Assembly: GCA_016182385.1 (NCBI GenBank)
Contig: JACPGV010000011.1
Coordinates: 22,888 to 86,887, forward strand
Origin: Candidatus Moraniibacteriota bacterium
Lineage (GTDB): Bacteria > Patescibacteriota > Minisyncoccia > Moranbacterales > UBA1568
Length of the DNA: 64,000 bases
Direction of reading: 5' to 3'
Made by a program: the position numbers and the translations under genes. Positions 8,223-61,868 of this stretch are shown here, piece after piece (the stretch's first letter is position 1; each line of letters opens with the position of its first letter). The notes under the pieces are model-generated. The model was given only the letters and a program-made list of their open reading frames with translations, searched no databases and was not told the DNA's origin.

Positions 8223-8723
8223 TTATCGTTTCAGAATGAGGCCCTCGAGCACATCCGAGGCGGTGGCGATGAGAGCGGAAACAAAGATGAGAAAAAGGCC
8301 GATAACAACACCACCCGCGATATCCTCCCTTGCTTCACGTTGAATTGTGAAAAAATAAACTTCCGCTCCTAGAATAAAAGCGACGAGTATCATCGCAGAG
8401 TATTTTATTGTCCGCACGGCTTTCGCCGACGCTTCTGAAAACGCTTCATCGTGTCGTATATATCCCAACAATTTGAATGCCTGATAGAGTGCTACGAAGA
8501 ACGCGACGGAAGCGGTATACACGTACCAAAGAAACGGATCGTGGAAATAAATCTGATAAAGCGTGGCGCCAACATTCCTCCCCTCAAGATGGGGCTCCCA
8601 CAATACGAAGACAAGTGTCCCGATACCGAGGGCCACAACGACCGCTTGAAGAAATATCGTCGAGCATCGTTTCATACCGCCAGTATAGCAGGTTTTCGGA
8701 AAAATACTGCAATAATAAGCCAA
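8223..8723 (-). CDS. hypothetical integral membrane protein
   Basis: 166 aa with 4 predicted TMs; no family recognised. Confidence 0.4.
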   Translation of the reverse strand: MAYYCSIFPKTCYTGGMKRCSTIFLQAVVVALGIGTLVFVLWEPHLEGRNVGATLYQIYFHDPFLWYVYTASVAFFVALYQAFKLLGYIRHDEAFSEASAKAVRTIKYSAMILVAFILGAEVYFFTIQREAREDIAGGVVIGLFLIFVSALIATASDVLEGLILKR

Positions 8724-8823
8724 GAAACTAAGGCGGACGTATTGACATCAACCGTAGATCTGCTATAATAGAAACATTCAGACGAAAAGGGATCCGAACG
8801 GCTAATTACCTAAGGAGCCCTTT

Positions 8824-9330
8824 TTATTTTGCCCCAATTTTCTCACGGACAAATTCAAGATAATCAAAATACTCGGAGCCTAGCTTCTTATAGAGCGACG
8901 AAGCATATTGTCTATTCGGGAAAAGCATCTTACCAAATTTCCTTTCTTCGATGAGAAAATCCACCAGCATCTTGTAATCCCCATCGCCGGATACGAGGAA
9001 TATTTTCCCGGGAACTTCCGCCTTACACATCCGCTTCATCGTCTGAAAGATGATATCCGAATCGACATTCCCTTTCTTCTTACCGAGCATCGCGGCATTG
9101 TGCTCGCGAAACATCAGCACGAAACCAGCTGCCTGTATTTCCTCATACAATTCCTCATTCGTTTCCTGGACATAGCCGAGGAAATAGTACGCCTTTGCGA
9201 TGCCATACTTTTGCTCTAGATACACGCGGAAACGCCGCAAGTCTATCCTCCACGGATCCCGCTCACGCTTGGCCGTACCCATATAGAGGTTTTGGCCATC
9301 AATGAATGCCAAGTTCTCTTTTTTTTCCAT
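8824..9330 (-). CDS. NYN-domain (LabA-like PIN-fold) putative RNase
   Basis: FIDGQNLY ... DSDI ... LVSGDGDY acidic-residue pattern characteristic of the NYN/LabA family; 168 aa. Confidence 0.7.
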   Translation of the reverse strand: MEKKENLAFIDGQNLYMGTAKRERDPWRIDLRRFRVYLEQKYGIAKAYYFLGYVQETNEELYEEIQAAGFVLMFREHNAAMLGKKKGNVDSDIIFQTMKRMCKAEVPGKIFLVSGDGDYKMLVDFLIEERKFGKMLFPNRQYASSLYKKLGSEYFDYLEFVREKIGAK

Positions 9331-9490
9331 AAGGTTTTTATTTCAATACCCTTATTCTCCCACGAAATTGATGGTTTTGAAAATATTACCCCAGCCGACG
9401 GTCATCATTTGGTGTAACAATTCGGTTTTTCTTTAAAAAAGGTACTTGACTCCATTTTTCTGCTCAGTTGAGGATCGACCTTAATTAGAT

Positions 9491-10267
9491 TTATTTAGAT
9501 TTTATAATGATTTCTGCCGCCTTTCCTACATTTTTTAATAATTCTTTTGAAAGAATCGGTTCTTTTATTTCGGGAATGCTTGGGGCACAAAAAACATCTG
9601 TTGCTTTCGACATGAACAGCCTTTTCGTCTCTTCGTTTATTTCCTTTTCAGAATCAGACGAGATATCAATAATACTTAAAAGAATATTTTGATATGTTTG
9701 CGCTAGCGTTTTCCTATTAGCAAAATCATTCCTAAGTTTAGAAAAATAGGAATATTGCGATGCTGTAAACCAAACTGCACTTATGATAATAAAATCTATC
9801 AAATAAAACTCAAAACGATCATACCAAGCCTTCCCGGAAGCAAAAATTACTGACCAAAAAGTAGACAAGGTGAGCGCGAGCGCACTCAATAAGAGATACT
9901 TACTCCATTCTTTAACATTATCCCCATATTCTTTTTCTTGAATCGCATAAGCAGAAGCCATTTTCTTTAACTCCATGCTATTTATTTGTTCTTGCTTATT
10001 CTTTATTTCTTTTTTTGCATCTGACAATGTAATCTCTAGTTGCTCTTTCTCGTTCTTTCGTTCTTCCTTTTCAGAAGCCAACCTAGCTTCATAATCAGAT
10101 TTACTAGACGACAAATCACTCTCTAACTTTACGAGTTTTTCGCTATCTTTTTCACTCAAAGATTCTAATTCGAGAATCCTTAAATTTGAAGTCTCAAGCT
10201 GCTTTTTTAAATCCTTATTCTCTACTATAACTCCATCATACTTTTCCTTCCATTTAGTTCTTGTCAT
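9491..10267 (-). CDS. hypothetical coiled-coil protein with two central TM helices
   Basis: N-terminal ~110 aa heptad-rich and charged (LKKQLETSNLRILELESL...), two TMs (YLLLSALALTLSTFWSVIFA; YLIDFIIISAVWFTASQY), and a C-terminal soluble tail. Confidence 0.45.
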   Translation of the reverse strand: MTRTKWKEKYDGVIVENKDLKKQLETSNLRILELESLSEKDSEKLVKLESDLSSSKSDYEARLASEKEERKNEKEQLEITLSDAKKEIKNKQEQINSMELKKMASAYAIQEKEYGDNVKEWSKYLLLSALALTLSTFWSVIFASGKAWYDRFEFYLIDFIIISAVWFTASQYSYFSKLRNDFANRKTLAQTYQNILLSIIDISSDSEKEINEETKRLFMSKATDVFCAPSIPEIKEPILSKELLKNVGKAAEIIIKSK

Positions 10268-10339
10268 AAAAAAAATTTAAAATATCATTTGTAGATTTTT
10301 TAAGAGCGAGGAAATGAATCCTCGCTCTTAGTATACTCC

Positions 10340-12247
10340 TTACTTTTTCTCATCGTCAGCTGGTTTGTCTTCAACCTCAGCGTCCTTTGGGGCTTCACCT
10401 GTCGGCTTGGCTTCCCCTGCTGGCTGCTGGGTGGCCTGCGCTTCTTGCGCGGCCTTGTAGAGTTTCTCACCGATCTTTTGCGCCGCTTGCGACAACGTTT
10501 CGGTCGCTTTCTTGATCGCTTCGAGATCGTCGCCATTTTTTACTTTGTTGAGTTCGGTGATCGCTTCTTCGACCGGTTTCTTCTCTTCGGCCGTGATCTT
10601 GTCGCCCGCGTCCTTCATCGCTTTTTCGGTCGTGTAGGAAAGCGTATCGGCCATATTGCGCGCCTCGATCAATTCTTTCTTGCGCTTGTCTTCCTCGGCG
10701 TGGAGTTCGGCGTCTTTTTTCATTCGTTCGATTTCATCCTTGGAAAGCCCTGTGGATGCCTCGATGCGGATATTCTGGCTCTTGCCACTCGCTTTGTCTT
10801 TGGCGGTCACGGTGAGAATACCAGAGGCGTCGATGTCAAAAGTTACTTCCACCTGCGGGATACCACGCGGTGCCGGCGGAATGCCATCCAAAATGAATTG
10901 ACCGAGTGATTTATTGTCGGATGCCATCTCACGTTCACCTTGCAAAACATGGATTTGTACGCTCGGCTGATTGTCTGCCGCCGTGGAAAAGACCTGGCTT
11001 CGTGATACCGGTACGGTCGTGTTACGGTCGATGAGCGGCGTACGCACACCGCCCAGAGTCTCGATACCGAATGTCAAAGGAGTGACATCAAGAAGGAGCA
11101 CGTCTTTTACGGAACCTTCGAGCACGCCGCCTTGGATGGCCGCGCCGGCCGCCACTACTTCATCTGGATTGACAGTGATATTCGGTTTCTTGCCGAAGAA
11201 TTTCTCGACAGACGAAAGCACGAGCGGCATTCTCGTCATACCACCGACCAAGACTACCTCATTGATATCGGAAACGGAAAGCTTGGCATCGGCGAGAGCC
11301 TTTTTGACCGGCTCAAACGACGCTTCGACAAGATCATGAACGAGCTCTTCAAGTTTGGCGCGAGACATCTTGAGAAGAAGATGTTTTGGTCCAGTGCTAT
11401 CTGCTGTAATGAATGGTTGATTGATTTCTGTTTCCTGCGCCGTAGAAAGTTCGATCTTCGCTTTTTCCGCTGATTCTTTGATGCGCTGGAGTGCGAGCGG
11501 ATCTTTGGAAAGATCAATACCTTCCTGTTTCTTGAATTCATCGAGAATGAAATGGATGATACGTTGATCGAAATCATCGCCACCCAAATGCGTGTCACCG
11601 TTCGTTGATTTTACTTCCACGGTGTCTTCGGCTACTTCGAGAATGGAAATATCAAACGTGCCACCACCCAAATCATACACGGCGATCTTCTCATCCTTCT
11701 TTTTATTGAAACCGTAAGCAAGTGCCGCGGCCGTCGGCTCATTGATGATGCGGCGCACGTTGAAACCGGCGATCGTACCCGCTTCCATCGTCGCTTTACG
11801 TTGTGAGTCATCAAAATACGCCGGTACGGTAATCACCGCATCCGTAATTTTCTCACCGAGTTTTTCTTCGGCGTCGGCCTTCAGTTTGGCAAGTACCATC
11901 GCCGAGATTTCCTGTGGCGTGTATTCTTTGCCTCCCATCACGATTTTGACGCCCTCTCCAGCCTGAATAATTTTGTACGGTAATGTTTTTTTGTCGCGTT
12001 GCACTTCTTCGTCATTGAAATGTCGCCCAATGAGTCGCTTCACGGAAAAAAGCGTATTCTCCGGATTGGTGACAGCCTGACGTTTGGCAAGAAGTCCCAC
12101 AAGGCGCTCGCCAGTTTTACTGATGGCAATCATCGACGGTGTCGTCCGATTACCTTCCTTGTTTTCCACAATTGATGGACTGCCGCCCTCTACGATAGCC
12201 ATCGCTGAATTGGTTGTACCGAGATCGATACCAAGTATTTTAGACAT
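10340..12247 (-). CDS. dnaK: molecular chaperone DnaK (Hsp70)
   Basis: [16 protein letters not shown] and [10 protein letters not shown] signatures with full-length Hsp70 architecture and a low-complexity acidic C-terminus. Start trimmed to [14 protein letters not shown] (ATG at 12247); the track's 12328 start would overlap grpE. Confidence 0.95.
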
Positions 12248-12287: not shown

Positions 12288-12839
12288 TTATTTGACGACG
12301 ACTTTTGCCGGACGGATGACTCGCTCACCGAAGCGATAGCCTTTCTGAATCACTTTCGCGATCATGTGTTGATCGTTTTCTTTTTGCTTGGCGTTTTCTG
12401 CTCCTTGCTCGCTATCCAGAGCCTCATGAATCTTCGGATCAAATACTTCCCCCTCCTGCACCTCTATCATCGAAACCCCATTGTCCGTGAGAACGGTCTC
12501 GAGCTGCTTCTCGATGTACTGGATACCGACGACCCATGGACTGTCTTTTTGCTCCGGTGGAACGTGAAGTGTCGCTTGACGGAAGTTGTCGAGAACCGGA
12601 ACGATATCGAGAACAAGTTTTTCTATAAGATACCCACCGAGTTCTTTCTGCTGAGCCGCCTGCCGTTTCTTGTAATTCTCGAACTCCGCCTGACAACGCC
12701 TGAGATCATTGAGATATTCCGTAGCGAGCGCTTCAGGAATCTTTTCTTGTGAGTCAGTCGTTGATTTCGCTATGGTTTCCTCTTTGTCTTCTATCACGTT
12801 TTTTTCTTCTTCCTGGATTTTTTTCTTTTTTTCCGTCAT
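12288..12839 (-). CDS. grpE: nucleotide exchange factor GrpE
   Basis: 183 aa; long N-terminal charged helix and C-terminal beta domain; lies between hrcA and dnaK as in the canonical operon. Confidence 0.85.
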
Positions 12840-12849
12840 AAAACGATAC

Positions 12850-13614
12850 TTAGTATAAAAAATAAATTATTTTTCCCGATAACACCACCAACGAAAGTGA
12901 TGACGAACTCTTGAGTAATTTTTTCATATATTCGATAAGGGATTTGTTCTTGGCATAATCCATTCGTTTGGGGCCGATGATGGCGAGCATTCCTTTTTCG
13001 CCCTCCTTGTTCTGATACGGCGCGACAATCATCGAACAATTATCGATACCAGAAATAGGATTTTCGTTCCCGATAAAAATACGTGTTTCGTCATCTTTCA
13101 GTTTTATCATAATATCGTCGAGCTTCTCGTCGAGTGAATCAAGCGTTTCCACCAATCGACAGAGTTCATCGATTTCTTGAAATTCCGGCTTCCCGATCAA
13201 TTCACGCATTCCGAAATCATAAAATTCTTCCTTATCGACAATACCGGAAACAGCGAGATTACCTGAAAGCGCGGAAAGGAGTTTGGCAGTCGTGCGACCG
13301 AGACGTTGATGCTTCGCTTTGAGCGTAAGAAGTTCTTTTTGCAGATGACGCTGATCCTCCCGAGAAAGATCTTCATCGCCCATCATTTCCTCGACATACG
13401 TACGATACCCGCTATCAGTTGGGATGCGACCGGCGCTCGTATGTGGCTGGTACAGATAACCCTCTTCTTCAAGTTTCACCATATCATTCCGTAATGTCGC
13501 CGAAGAAACAGGAAATTCAAAGTGTTCGAGAAGAACCTGCGACCCCACCGGAAGCGCGGTCTTGGTATAGAGCTCGACAATGGCCGAGAGCACTTGTTTT
13601 TGGCGTGAATTCAT
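12850..13614 (-). CDS. hrcA: heat-inducible transcription repressor HrcA
   Basis: N-terminal wHTH (RQKQVLSAIVELYTKTALPVGSQVL); ~255 aa; directly downstream of a CIRCE element. Start trimmed to MNSRQKQ (ATG at 13614) because the track's 13698 start would run through CIRCE. Confidence 0.85.
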   Translation of the reverse strand: MNSRQKQVLSAIVELYTKTALPVGSQVLLEHFEFPVSSATLRNDMVKLEEEGYLYQPHTSAGRIPTDSGYRTYVEEMMGDEDLSREDQRHLQKELLTLKAKHQRLGRTTAKLLSALSGNLAVSGIVDKEEFYDFGMRELIGKPEFQEIDELCRLVETLDSLDEKLDDIMIKLKDDETRIFIGNENPISGIDNCSMIVAPYQNKEGEKGMLAIIGPKRMDYAKNKSLIEYMKKLLKSSSSLSLVVLSGKIIYFLY

Positions 13615-13691: not shown

Positions 13692-13718
13692 TTAGCACTC
13701 TGTCAAGTGGAGTGCTAA
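13692..13718. promoter_or_regulatory. CIRCE operator (HrcA binding site) of the hrcA-grpE-dnaK operon
   Basis: Perfect inverted repeat TTAGCACTC-N9-GAGTGCTAA (TTAGCACTCtgtcaagtgGAGTGCTAA), ~75 nt upstream of the hrcA start. Confidence 0.9.
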
Positions 13719-59931: not shown

Positions 59932-60909
59932 CTAACGAAGCTTGCTTTTTAAGTTTCGCACCAACAAAAATCCAATAAGAAAATAAAAGCCGTAAACCAA
60001 ATGAGTGAAGAATATATAGTAAAGAGCATTGAAAAGAATGAAAGTATTTTTCTCAAACCGATACATATCCAGAAAAGATAGGAAAAGAGCTCCCCCGTAT
60101 AAAAACCACCCTATTTCATACCAAAAAAGAAAATGCGGGAAAAGAAAAATCGATCCAGTCCCTACTGTCACAAAAAGAAAAAAGAATGAGGGAATAAAAT
60201 ATTTGATACGCAATGACGTTTCCGGAAATTTTTTCGCGAAAAAACCTCGGTGCAGTCCATACCCATGCACTTGTTTCATATGTCGAAAAAATCCCTCTCG
60301 TCGATGATGATAAACATGAAGCGAAGGATCATACAGGATCTTTCCTTTTAATTTTTTTATAATATTCAAACACAGTTTCGTATCCTCTCCAGGCCAAAAT
60401 CCACAATCAAATCCATCAACATCAGCAAACGCCTGCTTTCGAATAGAAAGATTGACGCTCGGCCAATCGTCAACTAATCGTTTCTTTCCAACAGGCACAT
60501 AACGTTCTGGGGAACCACCGGAGAGAGAACTTAAAAAAACCGCCCCAGACACTTTCTGCCAAAAACTATCATGGGAAGGAGTAATAGCCGGTCCTCCAAC
60601 AGCGATAATAGAAGGATCGGAAAAATCATGATCCAAAATATCCAAAAAATTTTTTTCTGGATAAGCATCGTCATCGACAAAAATAAGTATTTCGCCCACC
60701 GCATCACGTATGGCGAGTGTTCGCTTCTCAGCCGGTCCGCAATGCCCGGTAGCTATTTGTCTTGTTTTTTGCCATGTTTCAGAAGTCGCCTTATCGGGAT
60801 AAATGATAATTTCATAATCATCACGAGATATCTCGAGTGTTTTTGGTACAGCCTCACGAATATAATCATTTATCTCCTTTACTGGAATAATAAAACTGTA
60901 TCGTATCAT
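59932..60909 (-). CDS. glycosyltransferase family 2 (GT-A) with C-terminal TMs
   Basis: FIIPVKEINDYIREAV, the FVDDDAYP D-x-D region and four C-terminal TMs; 325 aa. Confidence 0.75.
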   Translation of the reverse strand: MIRYSFIIPVKEINDYIREAVPKTLEISRDDYEIIIYPDKATSETWQKTRQIATGHCGPAEKRTLAIRDAVGEILIFVDDDAYPEKNFLDILDHDFSDPSIIAVGGPAITPSHDSFWQKVSGAVFLSSLSGGSPERYVPVGKKRLVDDWPSVNLSIRKQAFADVDGFDCGFWPGEDTKLCLNIIKKLKGKILYDPSLHVYHHRREGFFRHMKQVHGYGLHRGFFAKKFPETSLRIKYFIPSFFFLFVTVGTGSIFLFPHFLFWYEIGWFLYGGALFLSFLDMYRFEKNTFILFNALYYIFFTHLVYGFYFLIGFLLVRNLKSKLR

Positions 60910-60911
60910 AG

Positions 60912-61868
60912 CTACACAATGGCAAGTTTATGACGAAAATAATCAACTGTTTTTTGAAGCCCTTCATCAAGTTGCACTTTCGGCTCCCACCCATCAAGCT
61001 TTTCTTTCGCAAGAGCAATATCCGGATTTCGTTGTTTCGGATCGTCGGGCGGAAGATCTTTGTATACAATTCTGCTTTTACTTTCCGGAATAAAATGAAG
61101 GATTTTCTCAGCTAACTCTTTTATGGTGAATTCATTCGGATTGCCGATATTTACAGGACCGACAAATCCATCTTGATTCATCATTCTCATCATACCCTCA
61201 ATCAAATCATCTACATACTGAAAACTTCTTGTTTGAGATCCATCACCATAAATGGTAATATCTTCATTTTTTAAAGCCTGAACAATAAAATTTGACACTA
61301 CCCGACCATCATAAGGATGCATATTTGGTCCATACGTATTAAAAATACGAATAACACGAATATCTACTTTATTTTGACGATAGTAATCAAAAAAAAGCGT
61401 TTCCGCGCAACGTTTTCCTTCATCATAACAGGAACGGAAACCGACGGGATTAACATGTCCCCAATACGATTCTTTCTGCGGTGTGATTTCAGGATCGCCA
61501 TACACTTCCGAAGTAGAGGCTTGAAGAATACGTGCTTTGGTACGTTTTGCCAAACCAAGCATATTAATCGCTCCATGAACAGATGTTTTCGTAGTTTGCA
61601 CCGGATCAAATTGATAGTGAATAGGTGAGGCAGGACAAGCAAGGTTATAAATTTGATCCACTTCTACATACAGAGGAAAAGTAACGTCATGACGCATCAA
61701 ATCAAAACGCGGACAAGTCAAAATATCTAAAATATTATTCTTGCTTCCAGTAAAAAAATTATCAACACACAATACATCGTGTCCCTCTTTCAAAAGACGA
61801 CGACACAAATGAGAGCCTAAAAACCCCGCTCCACCTGTAACCAAAATTTTTTTTTCCGTCATATACAA
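60912..61868 (-). CDS. UDP-glucuronate decarboxylase (UDP-xylose synthase)
   Basis: [40 protein letters not shown] and the YDEGKR catalytic region, alignable end-to-end with UXS/ArnA-decarboxylase-type SDRs; 318 aa. Confidence 0.85.

Follow-up and report, generated by a model that had tools for sequence, protein, structure and literature searches.

A two-transmembrane protein gene behind hrcA-grpE-dnaK in a Moranbacteria-like genome: a possible solitary gene of the defence-island type

The 64,000-nucleotide stretch of contig JACPGV010000011.1 from a Candidatus Moraniibacteriota bacterium that was analysed here (hereafter the window) carries on its minus strand the heat-shock genes hrcA, grpE and dnaK. 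Behind dnaK lie a gene for a 258-amino-acid (258-aa) membrane protein, identical to HYV45_03720, and then a gene for a 168-aa NYN/LabA-like protein of the PIN fold. The open reading frames (ORFs) confirm this order on one strand, as an initial annotation of the window had it. That annotation further proposed that the two genes occupy the place where dnaJ is expected, that they pair as a membrane effector and a nuclease reminiscent of defence or stress-response modules, and that they would be heat-inducible if co-transcribed with dnaK. The interpretation preferred here, to which we give about an even chance, is that the 258-aa gene encodes a solitary membrane protein of the defence-island type, and that it and the NYN gene are two unrelated accessory genes in a variable interval reaching from dnaK to engB. 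The features of the locus, in the order in which the minus strand is read, are as follows.

13692-13718, no strand: CIRCE operator (HrcA binding site), a perfect TTAGCACTC-N9-GAGTGCTAA, overlapping a sigma-70-like promoter upstream of hrcA
12850-13614, minus strand: hrcA (Pfam HrcA, 1.2e-23); the ORF extends to 13698, with the likely start at ATG 13614
12288-12839, minus strand: grpE (Pfam GrpE, 1.1e-36)
10340-12247, minus strand: dnaK (Pfam HSP70, 6e-256); the ORF extends to 12328, with the likely start at ATG 12247
10301-10330, minus strand: perfect 12-bp hairpin 9 nt after the dnaK stop, an inverted repeat with 100% complementarity, followed by an A-run and not by a U-run
9491-10267, minus strand: gene of the 258-aa membrane protein, an ORF starting 72 bp after dnaK
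9743-9898, minus strand: codons of the transmembrane (TM) hairpin (residues 124-175), with the invariant W148 in the loop and D159 in the second TM segment (TM2), from hydropathy and alignments
9683-9727, minus strand: codons of the best-conserved motif (residues 181-195, DFANRKTLAQTYQNI), common to long-form proteobacterial relatives as (E)DYAYK..A..Y
9331-9490, minus strand: spacer of 160 bp between the membrane gene and the NYN gene
8824-9330, minus strand: gene of the 168-aa NYN/LabA-like PIN-fold protein (Pfam NYN, 1.6e-11)
8775-8800, minus strand: terminator-like hairpin after the NYN gene, from a consensus scan and the sequence
8223-8723, minus strand: gene of a DUF2975 membrane protein (Pfam DUF2975, 1.8e-19), the next gene of the variable dnaK-to-engB interval

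Conservation indicates that the 258-aa ORF is a real gene, since its homologues, found in 74 clusters, share W121, W148, N184, R185 and Q190, and the lack of conservation that the initial annotation had entertained is not seen. Over 70 sequences these five residues are invariant, and a D-[FY]-A-N-R-K-T-L-A-Q sequence after TM2 is nearly so. The protein divides into a variable charged N-terminal helix (residues 1-~95), a conserved juxtamembrane helix (96-122), the TM hairpin (124-145 and 152-175) and, beyond the hairpin, a conserved cytoplasmic helix with D-F-A-N-R-K-T-L-A-Q (181-190) and a C-terminal tail. Measured against 66 distant family members, the N-terminal helix averages 19% identity and residues 176-200 average 61%, with the juxtamembrane helix (43%) and the TM hairpin (39%) in between. 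Both TM segments of the initial annotation were recovered by hydropathy, at ~124-145 and 152-170/175, and TM2 has a conserved acidic or polar residue (D, E or N; D159 in the window protein). An AlphaFold2 model (pLDDT 79) is all-helical, with a helix at 4-143 running into TM1, then helices at 152-198, 205-226 and 242-257. The long N-terminal coiled coil that had been proposed is only partly borne out: a crude heptad test gives no significant periodicity for the window protein (p 0.39), but does so for 33 of 70 family members.

The protein falls in no family in Pfam, NCBIfam or PADLOC scans, and a sequence search of solved structures with it returned coiled coils only. A relation to SLATT or to zeta-toxin partners, as the initial annotation had put forward for checking, gained no support in the Pfam and PADLOC scans; SLATT gave no match at E<=0.1 with the protein, none at E<=1 with 10 homologues, and was not among the top families of 150 relatives. 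PADLOC-DB 2.0 had no match for the window proteins, while relatives match SMC-like coiled-coil models (LmuB, JetC) and, weakly and in 4/150, AbiZ. Matches of the protein and its relatives to bZIP, DivIC, LmuB and JetC in Pfam, NCBIfam, PADLOC and PHROGs were set aside as coiled-coil noise. DUF6161 (PF19658) was likewise rejected: the window protein has no match, and 6/150 relatives match at E<=0.01. Since that lead comes down to one homologue's borderline match over helix and TM1 (27.6 bits, the cut-off being 27), the protein is not assigned there.

Word-seeded searches for the family gave 14 and then 74 clusters, all annotated hypothetical, and every cluster from a named source belongs to Patescibacteria. 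An exhaustive profile search returned 269 representatives at E<=1e-3 and 45 at E<=1e-30, and among 185,579 species genomes there were 11 loci, all in Patescibacteria and spread over nine named lineages. The short form had no match in the virus and plasmid collections IMG/VR, INPHARED and PLSDB. As far as these searches reach, they show a family that appears undescribed and, among named sources, restricted to Patescibacteria.

What lies behind dnaK was compared with other Patescibacteria loci, denoted by L numbers; L001, L003 and L025 are related Moranbacteria-like genomes, with DnaK proteins 86-90% identical to that of the window, and L037-L116 are NYN loci. A homologue of the membrane gene has the same position in L001 (58% identical, on an 826-kb contig) and L003 (50%), where it starts 57 and 43 bp after dnaK respectively. 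A 63%-identical homologue on the 1.5-kb contig L030 is a probable third such case; a near-identical terminator stands at the contig edge, ~280 bp ahead of it. These homologues and the window protein are mutual closest relatives, and the protein core is 62-81% identical among these genomes. L025 reads hrcA-grpE-dnaK-339aa-DKNYY-NYN, with the membrane gene missing. In the window the minus-strand order beyond the NYN gene is DUF2975, a 55-aa ORF, DM13 and engB, the DUF2975 gene being absent from L001, L003 and L025, and the content of the dnaK-to-engB interval differs across all four genomes. Such differences bear the signature of a variable, insertion-prone accessory region that starts at the dnaK terminator and of which the membrane gene would be the most persistent, not a universal, resident. 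In all three verified genomes the membrane gene also looks compositionally foreign, as judged from the GC content at third codon positions (GC3):

Window: membrane gene 0.31, dnaK 0.54
L001: membrane gene 0.37, dnaK 0.84
L003: membrane gene 0.25, dnaK 0.76

In L001 and L003 the membrane gene is the first of a run of low-GC3 genes, the remainder of which are unrelated between the two genomes. In the window it forms a one-gene islet: the mean GC3 of the window is 0.42 (sd 0.06), and the 0.305 of the membrane gene is the second-lowest value among 53 ORFs. Three more ORFs of the window have a low GC3 of 0.28-0.31, at 59932-61868 and 557-1012 on the minus strand, and may mark further foreign islets. 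The variable region of L003 (13246-15476) holds a NADAR gene and a large NUDIX protein gene, the latter of low GC3 (0.33); both are ADP-ribose-related and of kinds often linked to conflict systems. Insertion scars were not seen at the membrane gene, there being no tRNA nearby and no Rfam family, and an AT-rich 12-mer (TAGATTTT[A/T]TAA), matching at 11/12 positions between 9496-9507 (at the stop codon) and 10292-10303 (upstream of the start), was judged to be chance.

Outside the Moranbacteria-like clade the neighbourhoods of the family were surveyed at 17 distinct loci, and in 8 of the 17 methylase or restriction genes are adjacent, in four cases within tight operons. The arrangements, including solitary ones, are these.

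L004-7, L033: membrane gene first in an operon, then an N6/N4 methylase and a ResIII helicase-nuclease (type III-like Mod+Res), with gaps of 3-4 bp
L018, L021: membrane gene, then an EcoRI-like methylase and a GmrSD_N-HNH nuclease; L021 adds an AAA_21 ATPase matching the Septu PtuA and HEC-04 models
L009, L016, L022, L024: membrane gene and a LexA_DNA_bind-Peptidase_S24 gene in divergent orientation, the latter with a DNA methylase fused to it or coming next
Extras at these LexA-S24 loci: a PvuII-like nuclease in L016, a GIY-YIG gene in L024, a helix-turn-helix gene and a 349-aa ORF in L009
L008: membrane gene, then a DUF4145 protein matching PD-T7-4 (1.7e-14)
L023: a MORC-type ATPase matching MzaB precedes the membrane gene
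L013: membrane gene flanked by NOV_C and a reverse transcriptase
L019: membrane gene between an ABC/AAA_21 ATPase and a MazG-like gene
L010-12, L017, L020, L031, L035: uninformative or housekeeping surroundings

The background was taken from the same methylase queries run over 633 kb of control Patescibacteria DNA, in which 8 methylase-like places were found (1.26 per 100 kb). Against this, methylase adjacency at 8 of 20 family loci has a binomial P of 3e-7 to 3e-4, depending on the span, and the family is by this operational measure of a defence island enriched next to restriction-modification (R-M) or other defence genes. Genes for SMODS, SLOG or nucleotide signals were found nowhere among the neighbours of 21 loci.

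The four LexA-S24 loci have features of their own. The LexA_DNA_bind-Peptidase_S24 gene is fused to, or in an operon with, methylases of two families (C5 and N6/N4), at L009 1432-2997, L016 8364-9698, L022 8122-9935 and L024 7658-9465, an arrangement in which a self-cleaving repressor could serve to control R-M. The intergenic region shared by the divergent genes has in all four a DnaA-box-like 9-mer, TTATCCACA, 3-30 nt before a start codon (L009 3085; L016 9699, on the minus strand, and 9766; L022 9928; L024 9536; one copy with 1 mismatch). Neither the window membrane gene nor the other family loci have this 9-mer upstream, and it may serve either as a DnaA site or as an operator to which the LexA-like repressor binds.

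A second line of evidence comes from phage-borne cargo. With hhalign the profile of the Patescibacteria family matches that of a group of ~430-aa long-form proteins at 99.1% (E 7e-19), over the juxtamembrane helix, the TM hairpin and the helix termed DYA after its motif. The long-form group in turn matches a 463-aa protein, WP_001583354.1, at 99.6% (E 1.7e-24). This two-step profile chain shows what appears to be a membrane module common to the Patescibacteria family and proteobacterial hotspot cargo, as a matter of remote homology. WP_001583354.1 occurs in 13 complete Escherichia coli chromosomes and in a Klebsiella element. In the P2-like prophage of E. coli CP61_Sichuan it is the sole cargo gene between gpA and gpQ, flanked by the portal gene gpQ on one side and, on the other, by the replication endonuclease gpA together with a small ORF and a DinI-like gene. 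The gpA-gpQ locus of P2-like prophages is a hotspot of antiviral systems and the site of old and tin (Rousset et al. 2022, PMC9122126). WP_001583354.1 is listed in Table S5A of that study, once with a DUF4145 gene (PMC9122126). DUF4145 (PD-T7-4-like) thus stands beside the family twice, at L008 850-1560 and in this one E. coli P2-hotspot arrangement (Table S5A, PMC9122126). On a Vibrio plasmid a long-form homologue adjoins an integrase and an Abi-family gene.

What the proteins of the WP_001583354.1 type, with their ~430-aa plasmid relatives from Vibrio, Xanthomonas and Paraburkholderia, appear to have in common with the window protein is the juxtamembrane helix (…AxAF/Y…), the TM hairpin and the cytoplasmic helix (QY…LR.DYA.K..A..Y), as well as a variable helical N-terminal region and an occurrence as solitary genes at accessory or defence sites. 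They differ in being ~430-463 aa long, with an N-terminal domain of ~230 aa in place of a helix of ~100 aa, and in being proteobacterial and phage- or plasmid-borne; they are hypothetical proteins and candidates for defence.

Foreign composition, presence or absence among close relatives, R-M and antiviral neighbours and remote homology to P2-hotspot cargo are the grounds on which the 258-aa gene would be taken to behave like a defence-island gene. Of the defence or stress likeness that the initial annotation saw, it is therefore the membrane protein that keeps it, through its R-M neighbours and the P2 cargo homology, and it does so on its own and not with the NYN protein. Several points weigh against a defence role even so. 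The role rests on guilt by association. No known defence gene adjoins the window copy, whose neighbours dnaK, NYN, DUF2975 and DM13 are without PADLOC match, and there is no methylase anywhere in the window. The surroundings are housekeeping or uninformative at 5 of the 21 family loci (L010-12, L017, L020, L031 and L035, as listed), and merging the methylase loci into 4-5 independent module types raises P to ~0.001-0.07. The Patescibacteria family compared directly with WP_001583354.1 gives no significant match (4% probability), and the link is accordingly a transitive one, by way of the intermediate long-form group. WP_001583354.1 is not among the systems reported as validated in the main text of Rousset et al., and the gpA-gpQ hotspot also holds non-defence cargo (PMC9122126). 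Fold searches with the 258-aa protein returned generic helical matches only, and that the gene stands behind dnaK in three or four genomes could point to a functional link with the heat-shock operon and not to an insertion hotspot.

The other half of the preferred reading concerns the NYN gene. Its identity as a NYN/LabA-like protein was upheld, the Pfam match (PF01936, 1.6e-11) scoring 45.3 bits with a cut-off of 24.2 and the acidic residues D11, D90/D92 and D115/D117 being intact. By these same features it resembles the NYN/LabA (DUF88) PIN-like nucleases, and it differs in belonging to a tightly conserved Patescibacteria subfamily that has no conserved neighbours. Homologues number 4337 at E<=1e-10, the top 120 being 69-93% identical. 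Within the subfamily identities of 61-93% are seen across many Patescibacteria orders. Neighbouring genes hardly ever recur, with GIY-YIG, reverse transcriptase, prfA and obg each seen a few times. The biggest neighbour cluster has 5 members in 80 loci, and dnaK lies within 8 kb in only 3 of 38 long loci. The protein could be a strongly constrained housekeeping RNase, or the product of a mobile gene.

That the two genes together make a two-gene defence or stress effector module, as the initial annotation had it, we regard as very improbable. They are adjacent and on the same strand in the window, and both stand within the variable region after dnaK. Against a module, however, they co-occur in no other examined locus: tblastn found the NYN gene in none of ~20 other loci with a membrane-protein homologue, and the membrane-protein homologue in none of 80 metagenomic NYN loci, so that over some ~100 loci the adjacency of the pair is not conserved, in relatives or elsewhere. 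The genes are parted by the 160-bp spacer, which shows no significant structure (fold z 0.15) and no relevant Rfam family, and their GC3 values are 0.31 and 0.57. Thousands of close NYN homologues do without a membrane partner, and the NYN protein has no PADLOC match. In L025, whose NYN protein is 93% and DnaK 89% identical to those of the window, the NYN gene is downstream of dnaK with no membrane gene present. The membrane and NYN genes are independent and their adjacency is coincidental; by its conservation and setting the NYN gene appears as a separate, highly conserved nuclease-like gene with its own upstream region, and not as a partner. Beyond its terminator-like hairpin, at 8742-8769 on the plus strand, there is a perfect sigma-70 consensus (TTGACA-16-TATAAT with an upstream TG, 12/12) opposite to all local genes. 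It points toward the hairpin ~10-50 nt off; a short antisense or small RNA may be transcribed from it, or it may be chance.

How far the 258-aa gene belongs to the operon upstream turns on what follows dnaK. The hrcA-grpE-dnaK operon with CIRCE was confirmed, with Pfam matches to HrcA, GrpE and HSP70 in canonical order and a perfect CIRCE that is the single copy in the window. A promoter-like TTGACA-18-TATACT runs from 13706 to 13677 on the minus strand upstream of hrcA, and alignments of the hrcA ORF to relatives open at its residues 23-28. In its perfect CIRCE, its promoter and its gene order the operon is like the class I heat-shock operons of the Bacillus/Clostridium type (CIRCE/HrcA). It differs from hrcA-grpE-dnaK-dnaJ in having no dnaJ and in the hairpin or terminator that follows dnaK in all four related genomes. 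The relatives have insertions within their heat-shock operons, the grpE-dnaK gap holding hsp20 in L001 (5437-5880) and a 23S_rRNA_IVP-family gene in L003 (5392-5784), and a 44-aa ORF lying between hrcA and grpE in L025 (671-805); the window operon has none.

The expectation of dnaJ behind dnaK is fair for Patescibacteria generally, since a J-domain/zinc-finger gene directly follows dnaK in two distant loci, L055 and L081, but it does not hold for the Moranbacteria-like clade, where none of four genomes (the window, L001, L003 and L025) has dnaJ there. All frames of the window lack the J-domain (HPD) and CxxCxGxG motifs, the one exception being an HPD in cysS that is due to chance, and neither the 258-aa nor the 168-aa protein has a DnaJ Pfam match or an HPD tripeptide. 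In this clade, then, dnaJ is simply not linked to dnaK, and as it is missing behind dnaK from all four genomes, the unlinking is a clade trait and not caused by the membrane and NYN genes. The case that the initial annotation had thought telling, dnaJ adjacent in relatives that lack the two genes, did not turn up, L001, L003 and L025 being likewise without dnaJ there. That the 258-aa protein should be a replacement for dnaJ is mostly not supported.

At the site corresponding to the window hairpin, L001, L003 and L025 have a canonical intrinsic terminator, AAGCGGGGCCATTTTGGCCCCGCTTTT, given also as AAGCGGGGCCATTTTGGCCCCGC(T)n. The AAGCGGGGCCATTTTGGCCCCGC sequence is nearly identical across the three despite strongly diverged synonymous sites, and the window has the unrelated 12-bp hairpin instead. 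The 3' hairpin of the window dnaK folds well (86 nt, -22 kcal/mol, z -4.8). It has no U-run, so read-through from dnaK is plausible. In L003 there are only ~10 nt from the terminator U-run to the start codon of the membrane gene, which leaves no room for a separate promoter; weak extended -10-like motifs precede the membrane gene in L001 and in the window. A placing of the 258-aa gene as a fourth gene of hrcA-grpE-dnaK, read through from dnaK and serving membrane proteostasis or as an anchor of DnaK at the membrane in replacement of dnaJ, draws on the missing U-run in the window, on the lack of promoter room in L003, on the same-strand position 72 bp after dnaK, on the like positions in L001, L003 and probably L030, and on the conservation of the protein core among these genomes. 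Yet in the relatives a canonical terminator separates the gene from dnaK, L025 has the same operon without it, none of the 17 family loci outside the clade is near dnaK, its GC3 falls well short of the operon's in each of the three genomes, and the protein has neither J domain nor HPD motif. Such a role we consider rather improbable.

The R-M neighbours invite another explanation, namely that the protein is an accessory subunit by which Mod/Res or methylase/nuclease complexes are held at the membrane, at the point of entry of foreign DNA, the window copy being an orphan that has lost its partners. Four tight co-directional operons of membrane gene, methylase and nuclease with 2-9 bp gaps (L004, L033, L018 and L021) speak for it, as do the four further loci that adjoin LexA-methylase genes. 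The partners, however, belong to unrelated R-M types (III-like, II-like and IV-like), which is more in keeping with co-location in islands than with a dedicated subunit, and many copies are solitary (the window, L001, L003, L020, L031, L035 and the P2-hotspot long form). Those solitary copies of the family retain all of the invariant residues. An accessory subunit is unlikely, if still worth some credit. The LexA-like genes could also be taken to mean a membrane protein of a stress regulon, for example a YneA/ChiZ-like division inhibitor, wired to HrcA/CIRCE in this clade and to LexA-like repressors elsewhere, and halting growth under damage with no sensing of phage. In Gram-positive bacteria the division inhibitors of the SOS response are membrane proteins whose genes diverge from lexA, and the four loci divergent from a LexA_DNA_bind-Peptidase_S24 gene share TTATCCACA, while three or four loci stand behind an HrcA-controlled operon. 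But the LexA-like genes are fused to, or in operon with, DNA methylases and so look like R-M controllers and not like the cell's own LexA, other loci have no regulator, and the protein resembles no known division inhibitor; the probability left to this account is small. An ordinary lineage-specific membrane protein with a housekeeping role, whose neighbourhoods arise only from the general tendency of accessory genes to cluster in small Patescibacteria genomes, would be in keeping with the housekeeping or uninformative contexts of 5 of the 21 loci and with the absence of any specific match to known defence-protein models. It would sit less well with the patchy distribution (11 matches in 185,579 species genomes), the presence or absence among close relatives, the foreign composition and the methylase adjacency above background, and it too seems rather improbable.

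If the defence-island reading of the 258-aa gene is followed, the protein, with two TM segments and both termini in the cytoplasm, would act alone at the cytoplasmic membrane. Its variable N-terminal helix would sense a cue from an invader or a partner, and the conserved TM hairpin, in which an acidic residue is buried, would oligomerise. The oligomer would then perturb the membrane, in an abortive-infection-like growth arrest, or block the entry of DNA as in exclusion. Two-TM abortive-infection effectors (SLATT, AbiZ and the TM effectors of CBASS, Pycsar and TIR systems) are also small proteins of the cytoplasmic membrane that have a TM hairpin, keep their termini in the cytoplasm and are encoded in defence islands, and the window protein is plausibly oligomeric and membrane-perturbing like them. 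In contrast to these the family has no SLATT match and only the weak AbiZ matches of 4/150 distant relatives, and no cyclase, SMODS or TIR partner is nearby, its partners being methylases and nucleases. The superinfection-exclusion proteins of prophages (T4 Imm, P22 SieA/SieB), which keep DNA from entering, are likewise small inner-membrane proteins that act alone, and the long-form relative stands at the site where P2 carries the exclusion genes old and tin. They differ in that no sequence or fold similarity was found, and in that the short form is chromosomal and absent from the viral and plasmid collections. More speculative again, and a long shot, is the idea that the juxtamembrane helix, TM hairpin and DYA helix are the effector of a new single-gene antiviral or exclusion family that spans Patescibacteria, often in R-M operons, and enterobacterial P2-type prophages, and that in the Moranbacteria-like clade has been captured behind the HrcA/CIRCE dnaK operon, where read-through would make it heat- or stress-inducible.

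For the question as originally put these results are mostly corrective: in this clade the dnaK neighbourhood is variable and insertion-prone, dnaJ is unlinked from dnaK, and the pair of effector and nuclease is coincidental. To our knowledge Patescibacteria, with their tiny genomes, have few recognised immune systems besides restriction-modification. A family-specific membrane protein recurring in R-M operons would add a new component to the handling of foreign DNA by these episymbionts, and the remote link to a cargo gene of the P2 hotspot offers in E. coli a tractable entry to the whole superfamily.

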